Shown here in pieces: positions 1-7,380 of a stretch of DNA of 23,060 nt. The notes beneath the pieces are model-generated. The model was not told the DNA's origin and ran no database searches. It saw nothing but the letters and a program-made list of their open reading frames with translations. The stretch lies in IMG/VR virus record IMGVR_UViG_2690316115_000020, positions 1-23,060 of that record; one strand, written 5' to 3'. The stretch comes from a virus. Its lineage: Duplodnaviria > Heunggongvirae > Uroviricota > Caudoviricetes. Position 1 is the stretch's first letter. Each line of letters begins with the position of its first letter. Both the position numbers and the translations under genes were made by a program.

Positions 1-1158
1 ATGCTCACCGTTAAGCAGATTGAAGCAGCAAAGCCGAAAGAAAAACCATACCGCCTTCTCGATGGTAATGGCCTGTACCTTTATGTCCCTGTGTCAGGGA
101 AAAAGGTATGGCAGCTTCGCTACAAGATTGACGGTAAGGAGAAAATACTGACCGTCGGAAAATATCCGCTTATGACTTTGCAAGAGGCAAGGGATAAAGC
201 ATGGGCTGCGAGGAAAGACATCTCGGTCGGCATCGATCCGGTAAAGGCGAAAAAGGCTTCGTCTAACAACAATTCCTTTAGTGCGATTTACAAGGAATGG
301 TACGAGCACAAGAAGCAAGTCTGGTCAGTAGGCTATGCAACTGAACTTGCCAAAATGTTTGACGACGACATTTTACCTATCATTGGCGGCCTTGAAATTC
401 AGGATATTGAGCCGATGCAACTGCTGGAAGTAATCCGCAGGTTTGAAGATCGCGGTGCAATGGAGCGAGCAAACAAAGCACGCAGAAGATGCGGCGAGGT
501 TTTCCGTTACGCTATTGTCACCGGAAGGGCTAAATATAACCCGGCACCTGACCTTGCTGACGCCATGAAGGGATACCGCAAGAAGAACTTCCCGTTTCTT
601 CCTGCAGACCAGATCCCGGCATTCAACAAAGCACTGGCAACATTTTCAGGAAGTATCGTATCGCTCATTGCCACCAAGGTTTTACGCTACACAGCCCTAA
701 GAACGAAAGAGCTTCGTTCCATGCAATGGAAGAACGTCGATTTTGAAAACAGGATTATCACCATCGACGCCAGTGTGATGAAGGGACGCAAAATTCATGT
801 GGTTCCTATGTCAGACCAGGTGGTTGAACTTCTCACTACGCTAAGCTCAATCACTAAACCAGTATCAGAGTTTGTTTTTGCCGGGCGCAACGATAAGAAG
901 AAGCCAATCTGCGAGAACGCGGTATTGCTTGTGATCAAACAAATCGGCTATGAGGGTCTGGAAAGCGGTCACGGATTCAGGCATGAATTCAGCACGATTA
1001 TGAACGAGCACGAATGGCCTGCTGATGCTATTGAAGTGCAACTGGCACATGCCAACGGCGGATCTGTGCGCGGAATTTACAACCATGCTCAGTATCTCGA
1101 TAAGCGCAGGGAGATGATGCAGTGGTGGGCGGACTGGATTGATGAAAAGCCGGAGTGA
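1..1158 (+). CDS. int: Phage integrase, tyrosine recombinase of the P4/IntS type
   Basis: 385-aa ORF beginning at window position 1 (MLTVKQIEAAKPKEKPYRLLDGNGLYLYV...), typical N-terminal arm-binding region of P4-family integrases. Catalytic-domain signature residues are present in order (..LRTKELRS.., ..HGFRHEF.., ..RGIYNHAQY). From memory it closely resembles E. coli CPS-53 IntS-type integrases. Confidence 0.9.
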   Translation: MLTVKQIEAAKPKEKPYRLLDGNGLYLYVPVSGKKVWQLRYKIDGKEKILTVGKYPLMTLQEARDKAWAARKDISVGIDPVKAKKASSNNNSFSAIYKEWYEHKKQVWSVGYATELAKMFDDDILPIIGGLEIQDIEPMQLLEVIRRFEDRGAMERANKARRRCGEVFRYAIVTGRAKYNPAPDLADAMKGYRKKNFPFLPADQIPAFNKALATFSGSIVSLIATKVLRYTALRTKELRSMQWKNVDFENRIITIDASVMKGRKIHVVPMSDQVVELLTTLSSITKPVSEFVFAGRNDKKKPICENAVLLVIKQIGYEGLESGHGFRHEFSTIMNEHEWPADAIEVQLAHANGGSVRGIYNHAQYLDKRREMMQWWADWIDEKPE

Positions 1159-1375
1159 TCCACCTTAACCACTATCGAAGAGCACAAAGCCTTGCAATCC
1201 AGTACAAAACTTTGTTTGTCTCATCAACCATAGCAAGTCATCGATCGATTGAGGCCTGGATGATAGACTTCATGCCTTTGATTATTAGCTGATAGAAGAA
1301 ATGTTAAAGCTATTTGCAATAGTACACCTCGATTGGTGTTATCAACACGCTAAAATGTTCTGAGATTAAGTCAAG

Positions 1376-2803
1376 ATGGAGTTAATTATGTTCAGAAATC
1401 AATATGCTATATCAGACGCTTCACTAAGTGGTAACATCAGTCCTGACATGGAATGGCACAGGATGAGCATATACCTAGGAGAGGGAGCAGAGGTTTTCGC
1501 TAATGACAATTGCATTATCATAGGTAAAGTCGTCAATAGCTGCGACCCTAGCATGTCCCCTAATGATATAGCAGACGCTGTATCATCATGCGACAGCATT
1601 GAAAGTGTTTTTGAACTGACTGATGGGATGGCAGGAAGATACATAATCGCTTTCATCATAAACTCAGAGGTATATATGCTGACTGATGCTTGCGGATTCA
1701 AAAGAGCTCTATTTATGAGGTATAATGGTGCAAAAATAATAACATCATCTGAAAATTACGCCGCTCACATATTTGGGTTTAACATTGTCATTAATGAAGA
1801 TATAAAAGATATGATGCGGGATGAATCCTACAGAAGAAAAGAAAGCCCATGGTTTGGTTTGACTTCTCCAGATGAAAGATTCAGTTATTTAATACCAAAT
1901 CACTACCTGTATATAGGTGATTTTTCGTTACATCGCATGCCCCCGCCAAAAATTGGTGGTGATGTAATTACCAGCGCATCATCAATGATAAAGAATACAA
2001 TTTTAGCACTTTCTGAAAGGTATAAGTTGATACAGCCTATAACGGCTGGCATTGACAGTAGGATTCTTCTTGCAGCATCTGAATCAGTTAAAGATAAAAT
2101 CGATTATTATGTATTTGGAGACGAAAACTCAAACCACGAAGACGTGTCCGTTCCTAAAGAGCTAGCAAAGATAGTTGGCGTAAATTTTAATGCAATCACC
2201 CCTCCGTCAGCACCAGATGAGTTCAAAAAGGAAATCGAAATGACAGTTCTTGGTGGTAGGGACTTGCCAAAAATAGATAATATATACTATCACTATAAAA
2301 ATTCTAACTTTGAAAAAGTAAACATCAATGGTAATGGCGCAGAGATATTCAGGTCGTATTATGGCGTGTCGATATTAGAGTTTAGCGCCAAGTCACTCTC
2401 TATACTTTCTGGAACTAAAAAATGGCCCATCATGGAAAGAAAGATTTATGATTGGCTAACCTTAACTGAAGCCAAAAGATTTTCTCAAGAGAACAATATA
2501 TCAATTACCGACCTTTTCTATTGGGAGCAAAGAATGGCAATATGGGGGTCTATGTTCCCTTTAGAGCAAGATATCGCAATGGATGAGGTGTCGCCATTCA
2601 GTAATAGAAAGCTAATTTTCACAATGCTGAGCGAATCTTCAAGCAAACGTAGATCACCAGACTTTAAATCGGCAACTTTGTTAATTAATTTTATGGATGA
2701 CAGATTAAATAAAGTGCCTGTAAATCCAAAATCATCAAACCATATTATAAACTTTATAAAGGCCCATACAATAACTCAGTTAATTGTTAAGAAAATAATC
2801 TAA
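1376..2803 (+). CDS. AT-rich cargo (moron) gene; soluble AsnB-family-like protein (class-II amidotransferase-like N-domain plus degenerate PP-loop synthetase domain), function unknown
   Basis: 475-aa ORF, visibly lower GC than flanking phage genes, with many AGA/AGG/ATA codons. The likely true start is the ATG at 1388 (GGAG 6 nt upstream, giving MFRNQ...). Motifs by eye, in AsnB order and spacing: GMAGRYIIAFIINSEVYMLTDACGFKRALFMRY..GAKIITSSE (res 84-126, cf. AsnB [37 protein letters not shown]); LIQPITAGIDSRILLAAS (res 218-234, PP-loop-like, cf. LLSGGLDSS); KELAKIVGVNFNAI (cf. QEVANHLGTVHHEI); NGNGAEIFRSYYG (res 318-330, cf. SGEGSDEVFGGY). No hydrophobic transmembrane segments are evident. 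Confidence that it is a real gene is high; the family assignment is moderate and not search-verified. Confidence 0.7.
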   Translation: MELIMFRNQYAISDASLSGNISPDMEWHRMSIYLGEGAEVFANDNCIIIGKVVNSCDPSMSPNDIADAVSSCDSIESVFELTDGMAGRYIIAFIINSEVYMLTDACGFKRALFMRYNGAKIITSSENYAAHIFGFNIVINEDIKDMMRDESYRRKESPWFGLTSPDERFSYLIPNHYLYIGDFSLHRMPPPKIGGDVITSASSMIKNTILALSERYKLIQPITAGIDSRILLAASESVKDKIDYYVFGDENSNHEDVSVPKELAKIVGVNFNAITPPSAPDEFKKEIEMTVLGGRDLPKIDNIYYHYKNSNFEKVNINGNGAEIFRSYYGVSILEFSAKSLSILSGTKKWPIMERKIYDWLTLTEAKRFSQENNISITDLFYWEQRMAIWGSMFPLEQDIAMDEVSPFSNRKLIFTMLSESSSKRRSPDFKSATLLINFMDDRLNKVPVNPKSSNHIINFIKAHTITQLIVKKII

Positions 2804-2814
2804 ATTTTAAATTT

Positions 2815-2847
2815 ATCAATATCGGGGAATGCAAACCCGATATTGAT
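2815..2847. terminator. Bidirectional intrinsic-terminator-like hairpin between the convergent cargo gene and tailspike gene
   Basis: Perfect 12-bp inverted repeat ATCAATATCGGG (2815-2826) / CCCGATATTGAT (2836-2847) with a 9-nt loop GAATGCAAA. It lies 12 nt after the cargo stop and 25 nt after the tailspike stop, with T/A-rich flanks on both sides. Confidence 0.6.
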
Positions 2848-2871
2848 TTAGATTGCGTTATTGATATGCAT

Positions 2872-5403
2872 TTAAATTATTGATAGCGTTCTGATTTCAT
2901 TTCCGGCCGGTGATGTCATAACTATCTGTGTTACGTTAGCGCCGGACACCGTATACGTCAGAATTATGTTACCAGCGGTTCCTATATTAAAGTTTTGTTT
3001 AGCACCTGATGAACCTATAGCTTTGGCATTCGTTAAAGTATACGTATTACCTGAGGTAAATCCTGTAGAAATTACAAATTGTTGCCCAACTTTAAAAGGA
3101 ACTGTCATTGTTACGGATGTTGACTCGACAGTGATAAACGGCAGGCTATGCTGTTTAACTCCCGTCACATCCCAGAACTCACAATTACGCACCAATGCTC
3201 GACCAATTAAACCGCGAGTTACAGGGAATGTTGTCTGGTCCTGTGATAAGAATGCTCCAACAATTTGCACGTTATCGAGCGTAATATCGTGTACTGTGGC
3301 CCCATCTATAGGACTTAACGTTGGTGATGCACTCCATAATTTACCACCCTTCATTTTGATACTCACAGGACCATTTGGGTCTCCACCATAATATGCACGG
3401 ATACGCTCAAATTTACAATCTGTGAGTTCATAGCTGCCGCGTTGATTGGTTTCGAACATTGTGTAAGCCTCGCCAGGCACGCCATGTCTAACATTGCTGG
3501 CAACAACACGGGGGTTATGTCGGAACGATGCCGACGTAACAGAGAAAACCGGCGCGCAGACATCATTGATGAGAATGTCCGTGGTATAACGCCCTGTAAC
3601 AGCGTTCTCAGAGTTACTCATATCCGAATATAGCGCTTTAAAGCGGGAGAAGTCTATGTTAAGCCCAACCCCTGCGCTTTTCGGGAGGGAGCCAAAATCA
3701 AGCCCGTCAATAACAATTTTCTTCGGAAAGTAAAGAACATTGTCGCGGCTAACTGTGATCAAAGTTCCTGGGTAAGTCACTGCGACGCCGGGGTACATTT
3801 TAATATCTTTCAGGGTGATATTATTAAATAGCGTAGGGCTTATAGGCGATCCGCTACTAGGCCCCTGCCCAGCAGTGACGGAGGCATTGATAATGCCGTT
3901 ACCCGGAACGTCGTTGCGCAAACCAGTTAGCTTTATATTCTCCATGTATAAATCACCATCGAAGAATCCCCCAGCGTCAGGGCGAGTCGCAATAATATTA
4001 CCAGGCTTATATGGTGAAGCGTTAAATGTTGAATTGGTTACGTACAAATCTCCGATACCAGAAGCGAGGACACCATAAACCCCAATATTACAGTCATTTA
4101 TCTTTAAGTAGTTTTGGAAGGGCCTGTGGAAATCAATTCGACTAAGATCACATCTTTCAAACCTTATATTGGCGCAATTATTGCTGCCTGTCGCCCCCCA
4201 ACCTTGACCATTTGCCGTTGCGTTTTTGATAGTAACATTCATCGATTCGCCTAGCCCGATGGCGTATGCGTAGCTATCAACACCATCTATTAAGGCGTTT
4301 GCTATGGCTGGCGTGTATAAACCATCCACTATAACATCATAGCTGTCGTGAATTTCTAACCGGGTATCATTAAAGTTTTGCGTTATCGGTCTGTTAATAA
4401 ATGACGTATTAATCAGACGAACTCTTGTTGCCTGATTAATAAAAATAATGCGATACCTTGTAGTAAGGCTCTCATCTATAGTCAACCCCTTAATGGTCTG
4501 CACATCTTTGCGAATTTTAAGTGCTTTAATAGATGTTGCGTTAGTTCCCAGGGCGTACTTAAGCGGGTTTTCAATGTATCCACGGTTATATACCCTGTTG
4601 AAATCTACGCGAGTTTGATTAACGCCATCGAAAATAAACATCGGTTGAGATGTTGATAACTGAATGAAGCAGCCGTCAAGGTCGGTGTTAGAAGCCAAAC
4701 CGTCAAGATAGTTGCTGCCTATTCCGCGAGAGTTACGAGTGGACGCATTAACACCATTAACCGGGGCCGAACCTGCCTCATAGGTTACAGGAGCGTCAGG
4801 CTGGCTAATAACAATCTGACCTGTCCACGTAGCGGATGGCTTGAGGACAGAACCAGTTAAATCCACATTTAAACTTTTAATATCAAGATAAGTATCACCA
4901 TCTAGTAGAAAAGTTCCGTCAGATTGCCTAACGTCTAAATTATTTGAATAAGCATAGTTCAGTGCCTTAGCTATGGCGGGAGCGTCATTTGTTACTCCAT
5001 CACCAATAGCGCCAAACTCCTTCAACGTTACCCAGTATTTTACTTTCTCCAAGCTCTTTTGATACTGATCCGGGTCGTACTTCAGCACATTAGGAAAATA
5101 GAACTGCTGTGATCCATATGCATCATAAACAGCCATAGAGTGGCCTTGCACAGTTACGAACTTGGCAATCTGTCCGTTATATACCGGATATCCGGCGGCG
5201 TTAATGATGATTGGTTGCGAAACAGGAACGTGAGAACCGTCTTCGTTCTCTACATAAACCGGAATCTGGTTTTCAGGATTTACCGGGTCAGTGTCAATTT
5301 TACCGATATAAATTTTGCCATTGGCAACCGCTTTAAAAGAACGCGCCATAGTGAAGAGTTGCGAAGGCATACTCACTACAACATTGGCTGTAATGTCTGT
5401 CAT
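2872..5403 (-). CDS. Tailspike protein: P22-type head-binding N-terminal domain fused to a long, divergent beta-helix-like receptor-binding/depolymerase domain
   Basis: 843-aa ORF. The N-terminal ~115 aa ([59 protein letters not shown]...[10 protein letters not shown]) matches the P22 gp9 head-binding domain as I recall it. The remainder is unrelated to P22 gp9 and carries a pectate-lyase-like motif [20 protein letters not shown] near its start. GGAG Shine-Dalgarno 8 nt upstream of the ATG. Confidence 0.9.
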
Positions 5404-5461
5404 TTAATTTGCTCCAGATACAAGGAATCGCCGCAGCATGGCTACGGTGAATTTTGGGCAT

Positions 5462-5485
5462 AAAAAAACCCAGCCGAAGCTGGGT
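5462..5485 (-). terminator. Rho-independent terminator between ejection-protein gene (gp16) and tailspike gene
   Basis: On the minus strand: ACCCAGC-TTCG-GCTGGGT hairpin (7-bp GC-rich stem, 4-nt loop; plus coordinates 5468-5485) followed immediately by a run of 6-7 T (plus-strand A-run 5462-5467). Confidence 0.65.
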
Positions 5486-5535
5486 CGTTGCGTTGGTTAT
5501 CTGTAAGTAGTTATGTGCTTAGTTAATTATTTATT

Positions 5536-7380
5536 CTATTGTTCTGCTGTAATTTGGCTTGCAAGTATAGGGCGTATCGCATTTGCAGCATTATTTAGCG
5601 CTCTTTCATAGGCTGGTGTTCCAAGCTTAGTGTTTGCCAAACGAAGAAGCATATTCCTTGCGGCTTTGGACTCATACAAACGCATCATTGCACCGAAACC
5701 AGCCTCAAGCCCCATTGATACGCCAAGAGTCGCAGTTGCGCCAATCGTCCTTATCCTGTTGGCTTGCGATTGCCCCGTCTGAGTTACTACATTTGCGGTG
5801 TCTGACCTTGCTGTTTGCTGTAGAACTTCATGAAGAGCATCAAGCTCTTTCATGTGCTTTCCAGAAAAAATAGTGTTGTAAATTTCACCACCCGACTGAG
5901 ATTTCAGCTTATTAACTTCAGTGATGAACCTGGCTGGAGAGTCACCGGCCTTTTCCGCTATTTTGCTGACGTAAGCTGCACGCATAGCATCTTTCCCTTT
6001 ATCATCCAATGCGCTCCAGATTCGTTTCACGTCAGATGGTTTTCTGCTTAATACAACGGTATTTATAAGTTCAGGACTGGCTTCACTGCTTGCCTGGTTG
6101 AGCTTGTTAGCAATGTTTTTATTAAGCACCTTATTATAAACATTTGCATAATCGGAATTTGCTTTAAGGTATTTTGCTGCGTCTGATGCACCGAGGTTTT
6201 TTGCAACTGCGTTACGAAGGTCTTTTGACATTGCATTCTCTACCATATTGGTAGCTGCTTTTGCCTGGTTGGGGAAGACCATAGCATCTCCCTGAACATT
6301 AGATCTAAATGCTGTTCTGTGCTGACGCAAGAGATCAAACGTAACATCCAAATCAGTTGCAGGGTTTGCTAATTCTTCACGTAGGTTACGCAAGGATGTA
6401 AGCAGGCTTTGATTGGCAGACGTCCCGAGCCGTTCCTGTCTTGCGATCGCTGTATTCAGAGCATTCATGGTATTTGTGGTATCAACTGCGGCATTACCCA
6501 TTTTATTGGTGACGTCATTGATAACAGCGCCAGCAGCATCCTTCCGTTCCCTTAACGTGGTGGTCAGAGATTTCACCACATCATCCGGGTTGTACTCACC
6601 AAAACGCTCAAAATAATTACTTACCAACTTACTCCGCGTTGCATATTGCTCTGCCCTTTTACTGCCAGTTCCAAGAATGGCCCCCTCAGCATCCTGAGTA
6701 AGACCACGAGTGAAAGCATTTTTCGGCGGGATAACATCAGATGTCATTGGTGTCACGCCCATCGATTCTGATGTGGCAATTTTCTTCGCCACTTCTGGCG
6801 CAATATCACCTTTTATAGCCGTTATTCCACGCCCTATTCCCTTTGCTGCTGCGGAAAGAACCCCCTGAGCGGCAAGGTTAACTCCGGCATTTTTGGCTGC
6901 ATTTTGTGCGAAATCGCCTTTCTGATTTGCGGCCTCTGCCAGTGATCCAATAGCCATGCTTCCTGCCATTCCAACTCCTGGAACTAAATACCCGCCAATT
7001 GTTTCTCCAGCTTGCGCATAAGGGTCTGTCGGTCGATAGACTGGACGATAGACATCATCCAAAACCTTGGGACCACCAAGCCCCTGACTGATTGCATTAA
7101 TCAGGCTTGCACCACCCTGTAACACGTCAAATGGTATGTTTACCAGACCACGACCAGCCTGTTCTGCAATTTGCCCTGCACTTTGACCACCAGTGAGCCA
7201 ATCGCCAGCTTGTTGCATCAATGATGGTTCTTCCCGTGTTGGTGCATTATTGGCCTGATTAACTGTTTGTTGCTGAACAGCCTGACCAGCAAAATACTCA
7301 TCAATGGCGGTGCCAATATCTTCGGTGCTCGTACTATCAGGAAAGGTAAATGTCTTACCGTTTGCAGTTACTTTCATCAT
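5536..7380 (-). CDS. Ejection (injection) protein, P22 gp16 homolog
   Basis: 614 aa; N-terminus [33 protein letters not shown] matches P22 gp16 as recalled. Size (P22 gp16 about 609 aa) and position (last ejection gene before the tailspike) fit. Confidence 0.85.

Follow-up and report, generated by a model that had tools for sequence, protein, structure and literature searches.

What drives the expression of a lone foreign gene lodged between the integrase and tailspike genes of a phage, and did its leader arrive together with it? The locus that raises this question lies in a 23,060-nucleotide (nt) stretch of viral DNA (Duplodnaviria; Heunggongvirae; Uroviricota; Caudoviricetes; positions 1 to 23,060 of IMG/VR record IMGVR_UViG_2690316115_000020), hereafter the window. 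It comprises an integrase gene (int, 1-1158, + strand), a 217-bp spacer between the end of int at 1158 and the first ATG at 1376, a cargo open reading frame (ORF) co-oriented with int (first ATG 1376, second ATG 1388, stop 2803), a tailspike gene (2872-5403, - strand) and virion genes. Guanine-cytosine (GC) content is 38.7% for the spacer, 48.2% for int, 36.9% for the cargo and 48% for the whole window; the AT-richness of the spacer is moderate, with 7% of all 217-bp windows in the 23-kb sequence having an equally low GC content or lower. An earlier note on this DNA had described the spacer as AT-rich and unlike int in composition, as it is, and had taken leader and gene for a self-contained, horizontally acquired expression cassette that could be active in the lysogen. 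This description suits the cargo ORF, which is foreign in composition, but not leader positions 1159-1351, which read as resident phage DNA. A lysogen-active promoter is probably present in the spacer, but a better candidate than the TAAAAT hexamer highlighted earlier lies 87 nt upstream of it, identified through homology to the gtr promoter of phage P22. Here, we describe evidence that the leader is a composite, likely the product of an exchange of cassettes in the lysogenic-conversion locus of a P22-like (Lederbergvirus-type) phage, with the cargo now under the inherited gtr promoter.

Origin of the leader

In a BLAST comparison with phages (query positions 1100-1450), the spacer shows, as far as 1351, 87% identity with phage HF4s across the 3' end of int, the entire int-gtrA spacer and the opening 50 nt of gtrA, and for positions 1215-1351 the identity is 80% with the DNA that immediately precedes and enters gtrA in Shigella phages SfI, SfII, SfIV and SfV. 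Positions 1186-1351 align with the int-gtrA spacer and the start of gtrA (50 nt) in HF4s, a CPS-53-like prophage, SfV, SfII and P22. Approximately 2,100 complete E. coli genomes match the DNA of the int-spacer region (query positions 900-1700), and in the best-matching records this region is the intS-yfdG(gtrA) junction of the CPS-53/KplE1 prophage. This junction and those of HF4s and N7 are the nearest relatives of 1159-1351 (roughly 87-96% identity). They have the same IntS integrase, with attP on the upstream side of int, which keeps int and the conversion genes adjacent in the prophage. CPS-53 and HF4s carry intact gtrA-gtrB-gtrC and N7 a 26-codon gtrA stub, whereas the window carries a gene resembling asparagine synthetase B (AsnB).

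Homology to gtrA ends between 1351 and 1352. The 36 nt that follow (1352-1387) are missing from all gtr-carrying relatives and conserved in all cargo-linked copies, and the TAAAAT hexamer (1351-1356) straddles the breakpoint, its T being the last gtrA-derived base and AAAAT the first incoming bases. Resident conversion-locus DNA makes up 193 of the 229 nt of the leader (1159-1351: int flank, gtr promoter and gtrA 5' end). Import of the leader together with the cargo was not borne out, as DNA of the identical type occurs in relatives that carry gtrABC; judged by homology, 1159-1351 is resident phage DNA comprising the gtr promoter and the start of gtrA as far as codon 17. Neither gtrB nor gtrC is found between 1301 and the tailspike gene, and gtrA is reduced to codons 1-17, frameshifted. 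In relatives, the slot between int and the tailspike gene is always filled by some conversion gene or remnant. With respect to the features of a moron, the composition of the cargo differs from that of the window (36.9% vs 48% GC), a terminator-like repeat follows at 2815-2847, and the promoter is inherited from the replaced cassette.

The combination of stub, junction and cargo is present in 5 of 5,426 complete E. coli genomes, and two of the five loci (L007 and L008) were read and aligned. Both adjoin dacD without a neighboring IntS gene; one retains just the last 60 nt of int and the other has IS1 at the equivalent of 1205. An 85%-identical cargo is found in two Enterobacter-type P22-like prophage loci (L011 and L125), between the int/humD region and the tailspike gene. 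Upstream contexts differ among the copies (full IntS int, int 3' fragment, IS1 insertion, P22-type promoter): the promoter and 5' untranslated region (UTR) of the Enterobacter copies are of the P22 type (TGCTACACT) and not the CPS-53 type, and it is from the final ~18 nt of the stub onward, through junction and cargo, that these copies agree with the window. This distribution points to one ancestral fusion, after which promoter variants would have been swapped by recombination within the stub or 5' UTR.

Additional features were observed at these loci. The IS1 of strains DAM and ANT (L007, ~5288-6000) is inserted 71 nt upstream of the predicted +1, with an acyltransferase-family gene immediately upstream of the IS1. 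Both Enterobacter prophages have a canonical LexA box (CTGTATATGCATACAG; L011 5195-5215, L125 ~405-425) between a divergent humD/umuD-like gene and the gtr-type promoter, ~70 nt or less from the predicted +1. Upstream of the -35 in the window, the block TTTGTCTCATCAACCATAGCAAGT (1211-1240) is near-invariant between the E. coli CPS-53-type and Shigella SfV/SfII sequences despite their unrelated int/attP modules, and it differs from the OxyR/GATC arrangement of P22.

Predicted promoter and transcript

Mapping of the P22 gtr operon placed its transcription start site (TSS) 25 bp before the gtrA ATG and 33 bp past GATC4, which lies in the -35 element, and a fragment spanning -45 to +34 by itself gave 349 Miller units and uniform Lac+ colonies (Broadbent et al., 2010; PMC2909390). 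The window matches this geometry, with a GATC 33 nt before the predicted +1 and the gtrA ATG (1301, +26) 25 nt beyond it (Table 1). It further shares with P22 the -35 TCGATC containing the GATC, the 17-nt promoter spacer, a TG-extended -10 (TACACT in P22, TAGACT in the window), a conserved TTCA..CCTTT near +1, and its place in a P22-like phage, with int on one side and the tailspike gene on the other. In contrast to P22, the window is without GATC1-3, has diverged in sequence beyond the core elements, has a 17-codon gtrA stub instead of gtrABC, and has no adjacent attP. The 16-mer that spans the TG and -10 (TGGATGATAGACTTCA) has exact matches in 106 IMG/VR contigs, and in 71 of these an intact 120-aa GtrA begins 28 nt later. 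By analogy with P22, we infer that the gtr promoter fires at ~1276 in this phage.

Table 1. Coordinates of features in and around the int-cargo leader (positions in the window)
Feature	Position	Strand	Evidence or remark
IntS-type tyrosine integrase (CPS-53/KplE1, HK620, Sf6 type), 385 aa	1-1158	+	Pfam Arm-DNA-bind_3, Phage_int_M, Phage_integrase
int-distal flank common to IntS-type phages	1159-1214	+	homology to HK620, HK633, CUS-3, 434 and Stx phages
Conserved block upstream of -35	1215-1240	+	near-invariant in window, HF4s, CPS-53-like prophage, SfV and SfII
Predicted -35, TCGATC	1241-1246	+	contains GATC 1243-1246; identical to P22 -35/GATC4 in alignments
Promoter spacer, 17 nt	1247-1263	+	P22 likewise 17 nt
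Predicted extended -10, TG 1261-1262 and TAGACT 1264-1269 (TGATAGACT)	1261-1269	+	aligned to P22 TGCTACACT
Predicted +1	1276	+	homology only; context TTCATGCC ending at 1276 vs P22 TTCAGACC
gtrA 5' stub ORF, 20 codons plus stop (MLKLFAIVHLDWCYQHAKMF*)	1301-1363	+	gtrA homology 1301-1351
Junction segment arriving with cargo, 36 nt, 27.8% GC	1352-1387	+	holds Shine-Dalgarno GGAG (1378-1381)
Cargo coding sequence, 471 aa, predicted Cys-less asparagine-synthetase-B/beta-lactam-synthetase-like PP-loop enzyme	1388-2803	+	AlphaFold2 (AF2) model and Foldseek
Candidate bidirectional terminator	2815-2847	.	perfect 12-bp inverted repeat ATCAATATCGGG / CCCGATATTGAT, 9-nt loop

Scoring of sigma-70 sites with a position weight matrix (PWM) ranks the TAGACT site first on the + strand of 1100-1400 (9.1 bits), and the + strand of the spacer contains just two TANNNT hexamers, TAGACT at 1264 and TAAAAT at 1351. 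A consensus scan detected no promoter-like site in 1159-1387, and antisense promoter candidates on the minus strand score no better than chance (9.3-9.8 bits). Since neither promoter candidate beats shuffled sequences, the argument for the promoter rests on homology and not on score.

Several points weigh against a functional gtr promoter at this position, or against the reading as a whole. The promoter is weak by sequence, with a -35 that matches the consensus at 3 of 6 positions and a score (9.1 bits) attained in 32% of shuffles. Window and P22 are identical at just 41 of 79 positions across -45 to +34, and promoter activity is therefore extrapolated from the conserved core elements. One E. 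coli copy (L008, strain 2017.06.05CC, ~6180) has a 3-bp deletion (ATG) at the predicted +1. A literature check aimed at K-12 yfdG (predicted TSS 2,467,830) and S. flexneri gtrA found no mapped TSS for the E. coli/Shigella version of the promoter. Finally, a frameshifted stub together with a rare cargo could mark a decaying locus.

A different promoter may instead have been created by the junction itself. As described earlier, TAAAAT lies ~20 nt before the first ATG (19 nt before ATG 1376) without a clear -35, the best being TCGATT (1329-1334) at a 16-nt spacing with 3 of 6 matches; a promoter here would give a leader of ~25 nt to ATG 1388. The hexamer departs from the -10 consensus at a single position of six, keeping A2 and T6, and as one of the two + strand TANNNT hexamers it has the second-best PWM score on that strand (7.7 bits), but this score is at chance, being attained by the best site in 63% of shuffles, and the site was missed by the consensus scan and has no TG extension. 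At the same junction, both Enterobacter copies have the hexamer TCAAAT, which therefore loses the key -11 A, with TCAATA as the -35, and a TSS at ~1363 would leave ~15 nt before the Shine-Dalgarno sequence. We regard a junction promoter as improbable, and the hexamer is most likely incidental, a by-product of recombination.

Transcription of the cargo could also come from read-through of int, either from P_intS in the lysogen or from leftward early transcription after induction, with no working promoter in the spacer. Consistent with this, int and cargo are co-oriented and no canonical terminator is predicted between them. HK620 has an annotated 'terminator for prophage excision transcript', and its counterpart in the window, within the int-distal flank, is a degenerate, weak inverted repeat (1184-1194 / 1205-1215, 82% complementary) that was not called by the terminator scan; the fold of 1150-1280 is not significant (z -0.32). 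On the other hand, intS-type genes are negatively autoregulated and poorly expressed (PMC2951348), so read-through should be weak in lysogens, and the core gtr elements are conserved across phages with unrelated int/attP modules and were kept after the insertion of IS1 71 nt upstream. Read-through as the sole source of cargo transcript is thus unlikely, and transcription from the inherited gtr promoter remains our preferred reading.

The transcript predicted from this promoter has no terminator-like site and no significant RNA fold between 1276 and 1388 (fold of 1276-1410, z -0.86). A riboswitch, attenuator or small RNA in the leader was considered and rejected, with no Rfam match in 1000-3000 and insignificant folds. 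A hairpin around the Shine-Dalgarno sequence and ATG 1388 was also rejected, as in a base-by-base comparison (covariation not counted) it loses pairs in the Enterobacter copies with no compensating changes.

Phase variation of P22 gtr involves four GATC sites, in two pairs with OxyR half-sites, within ~115 bp upstream of +1. This arrangement was not found in the window: the GATC at -33 is the sole GATC within -115 to +34 of the predicted +1, P22 GATC1-3 are unconserved in the alignment, and the next GATC is at 1157 (-119), on the int stop codon, with no other within 130 nt upstream of +1. No phase variation was seen in Salmonella gtr operons with just the -35/GATC4 and -10 (Davies et al., 2013; PMC3688519). 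Because there is a single GATC instead of four, the prediction for the lysogen is cargo expression without phase variation. Methylation by Dam may tune the cargo promoter at its -35, a suggestion that derives from the reduced activity of the P22 core promoter fragment (-45 to +34) in a dam mutant (PMC2909390). A perfect 10-bp palindrome (ATCGATCGAT, 1240-1249) overlaps the predicted -35 and the sole Dam site.

The gtrA stub and the start of translation

The ATG at 1301 is the start codon of gtrA (MLKLFA...). An extra T at 1320 shifts the frame of the stub, which stops at 1361-1363; deletion of T1320 in silico yields a 27-codon ORF that ends with TAA at 1383-1385, 2 nt before ATG 1388, as in Enterobacter. 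In both Enterobacter copies, the stub is in frame with 27 codons, MLKLFA(N/K)YTSIGVIN(T/M)LKCSEIEPGWS, and its TAA lies 2 nt before the cargo ATG, an arrangement that would translationally couple the cargo to the gtrA start.

The second ATG had been described as having the better Shine-Dalgarno sequence, and it is supported as the start of the cargo on three counts. GGAG (1378-1381) precedes ATG 1388 at a distance of 6 nt; the N-terminus of the cargo family has the consensus MF(R/K)NQY (38 homologues), with one 50% homologue starting MVFKNQY; and where E. coli chromosomes carry the identical gene, RefSeq annotates a 471-aa protein that starts at the equivalent of ATG 1388. On this sequence evidence, ATG 1388 is taken as the start codon.

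Together, these observations suggest the following sequence of events. A foreign, AT-rich AsnB-like gene with its own 36 upstream nt, including the Shine-Dalgarno sequence, would have recombined into codon 17 of gtrA, so that the incoming cargo replaced gtrABC. The cargo would have inherited the resident gtr promoter (TCGATC at 1241-1246, TG and TAGACT at 1261-1269, +1 at 1276) and would be transcribed with an mRNA leader of ~112 nt that holds the ribosome-binding site and stub ORF of gtrA. In the putative ancestral form, which is still present in Enterobacter, the in-frame 27-codon stub would tie translation of the cargo to the gtrA start. The E. coli lineage, including the window, has the extra T1320 that ends the stub at 1361-1363, and there the cargo would therefore have to use its own GGAG and ATG 1388. 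Transcription in the lysogen would be non-phase-variable and possibly sensitive to Dam methylation of the -35.

With respect to the leader, the result is deflationary: what had seemed an import is a promoter module of a known type and wide conservation, and it is the cargo, with its docking on the gtrA stub, that is unusual. In such an exchange of conversion cassettes, the cargo docks on a fixed promoter, 5' UTR and gtrA stub, and therefore needs no promoter of its own. Promoter variants appear to be swappable upstream of the same cargo, between a P22 type (with the Dam/OxyR signature in P22) and a CPS-53 type (with a single GATC). For this leader, a precise TSS, start codon and regulatory behavior can be predicted.

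The slot in related phages

In HK620, the same promoter core extends through TGATAGACTTCA and is followed by a different, O-antigen-polymerase-like gene. Other contigs with the 16-mer have gtrA stubs followed by Acyl_transf_3 (AT3), by Acyl_transf_3 plus SGNH (AT3-SGNH), or by an O-antigen-polymerase-like gene. The stub of N7 has 26 codons, and E212 has a remnant only. In Sf6, the spacer between int and oac is unrelated to that of the window and has its own putative promoter. HK620, Sf6 oac and the AT3 cassettes resemble the window in having a single foreign O-antigen-related gene between int and the tailspike gene, and HK620 and the AT3 examples also in retaining the core of P_gtr. None of them has an AsnB-like cargo, however, and the breakpoints differ from that of the window, lying just past the -10 in HK620 and after a 47-codon stub in L123. 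From these sequence comparisons, the gtr promoter appears to be a platform that has been reused repeatedly.

Individual contigs, which represent independent gtrA-stub events behind the same promoter, illustrate the range of contents. In L123, the 47-codon gtrA stub is followed by a 630-aa AT3-SGNH acetyltransferase; L093 and L050 have AT3 genes behind gtrA stubs, with the same promoter; and in L112, L028 and L075 the gtrA stubs are fused to nothing or straight to a terminator.

The cargo protein

The cargo sequence has no match in Pfam, NCBIfam, PHROGs, PADLOC, or PDB sequence and profile searches, and was therefore classified by structure prediction and Foldseek only. The AF2 model (predicted local distance difference test [pLDDT] 94.1, predicted template modeling score [pTM] 0.93) matches 1q15, 1m1z, 9b6c and 1ct9 with Foldseek probability 1.0 and E values of 2e-12 to 1e-9, the matches being the carbapenam synthetase CarA, beta-lactam synthetase and asparagine synthetase B. 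In this model, the cargo has the two-domain AsnB fold. Like members of the AsnB superfamily, it is predicted to combine an N-terminal-nucleophile (Ntn)-like N domain with a PP-loop ATP-pyrophosphatase C domain; it differs from them in its low sequence identity (~10-13%), in the absence of a Pfam Asn_synthase match, and in having TAGxDSR instead of SGGxDS. The motif T219-A-G-x-D-S-R225 is family-invariant and located at the expected PP-loop position, and TAGxDSR is conserved in the 73 cargo homologues. A match to the NAD-synthase PP-loop is faint (E 0.11). The cargo begins MFRNQY, within the family consensus, and the N-terminal Cys nucleophile is absent, as in CarA and beta-lactam synthetase and unlike in AsnB. 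The O-antigen amidotransferases WbpS (P. aeruginosa O6) and WbtH (Francisella) are among the Cys-less relatives in the AsnB superfamily.

The cargo family is unannotated, with proteins of ~490 aa and members that include loci L012, L013 and L126-L129. Homologues with 47-50% identity lie within polysaccharide clusters, alongside Wzx/MatE, EpsG, glycosyltransferases, Bac_transf, PglD-like and DegT proteins. Those with 27-32% identity are found in low-GC prophages (L126-L129) directly after beta-helix/pectate-lyase receptor-binding proteins, and in L126 the cargo homologue is followed by a Wzy_C gene, ahead of the lysis genes. The cargo had no match in INPHARED phages (tblastn) or GTDB species representatives. 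Because its relatives lie in polysaccharide contexts, modification of the O-antigen or another surface glycan is a reasonable inference for the cargo.

This would make the AsnB-like family a candidate for a third kind of phage O-antigen modification, beside glucosylation and acetylation, with a bearing on serotyping, phage host range and vaccine antigens. A more specific proposal, which we put forward tentatively and consider doubtful, is that the cargo represents a new class of phage-borne enzyme for surface-glycan modification in lysogenic conversion. It would be an AsnB-like adenylating amidoligase without the Cys, acting on a sugar carboxylate of the O-antigen by amidation or aminoacylation, and would be plugged into the gtr promoter through an originally in-frame gtrA stub serving both as coupling device and as homology handle for moving between phages. 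If so, the occurrence of the family next to depolymerase-type receptor-binding proteins in both enterobacterial and low-GC phages would indicate a general, unrecognised form of receptor modification or superinfection exclusion.

The properties of the cargo also bear on whether the locus is silent or decaying in the lysogen, as an H-NS-silenced gene or a relic with the leader as inherited baggage. The low GC content of the cargo relative to the window and the frameshift in the stub are in keeping with this, as are the rarity of the cargo in complete E. coli genomes, its absence from INPHARED phage records, and the existence of gtrA stubs with nothing useful downstream (E212, L112). However, the 471-aa ORF is intact, with every family-invariant residue aligned, including TAGxDSR; the cargo shows 99% identity or more among several E. 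coli strains and is also intact in the Enterobacter copies; and a mutation in hns left the behavior of P22 gtr expression unchanged (PMC2909390). We give a silent or decaying locus little credence, and favor transcription of the cargo from the inherited gtr promoter.

Integrase, terminator and tailspike

The nucleotide sequence of int is ~95-97% identical to int of Sf6, HK620, CUS-3 and HF4s, and the homology of the flank downstream of it to HK620, HK633, CUS-3, 434 and Stx phages stops at ~1194-1223. An attP in the int-cargo spacer, as in P22, SfV and SfII, was considered and rejected, the attP of IntS-type phages being upstream of int. The attP core is annotated upstream of int in HK620 and Sf6; tRNA-Arg (argW), intS and gtrA are contiguous in integrated CPS-53-like prophages; and the attP of SfII lies upstream of the part of SfII that is homologous to the window.

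Downstream of the cargo, the inverted repeat at 2815-2847 sits between the convergent stops of the cargo (2803, + strand) and the tailspike gene (2872, - strand). It was not detected by the terminator scan, and from its sequence it probably closes the cassette by terminating transcription in both directions.

The tailspike (843 aa) has a P22-type head-binding domain (aa 1-113) and a receptor-binding part with low identities to other proteins: 57% with those of Shigella phage MK-13 (host S. boydii type 1) and Enterobacter phage fGh-Ecl02, and 49% with Rtp. Such values do not point to a particular host O-antigen.

Two further observations concern the end of int. A perfect 9-bp inverted repeat (ACTGGATTG / CAATCCAGT, 1133-1141 and 1195-1203) flanks the int stop codon with its arms 53 nt apart, where by a rough estimate ~0.07 such pairs are expected by chance in the region; one arm is altered in HK620 and HF4s, and the repeat could serve in the RNA processing or retroregulation of int. 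Positions 1098-1223, the last 60 nt of int and ~65 nt downstream, recur at 85% identity in phage 434, in lambda hybrids and at the ends of many Stx-phage records, with no IntS gene attached, and by sequence this segment looks like a recurrent recombination boundary.

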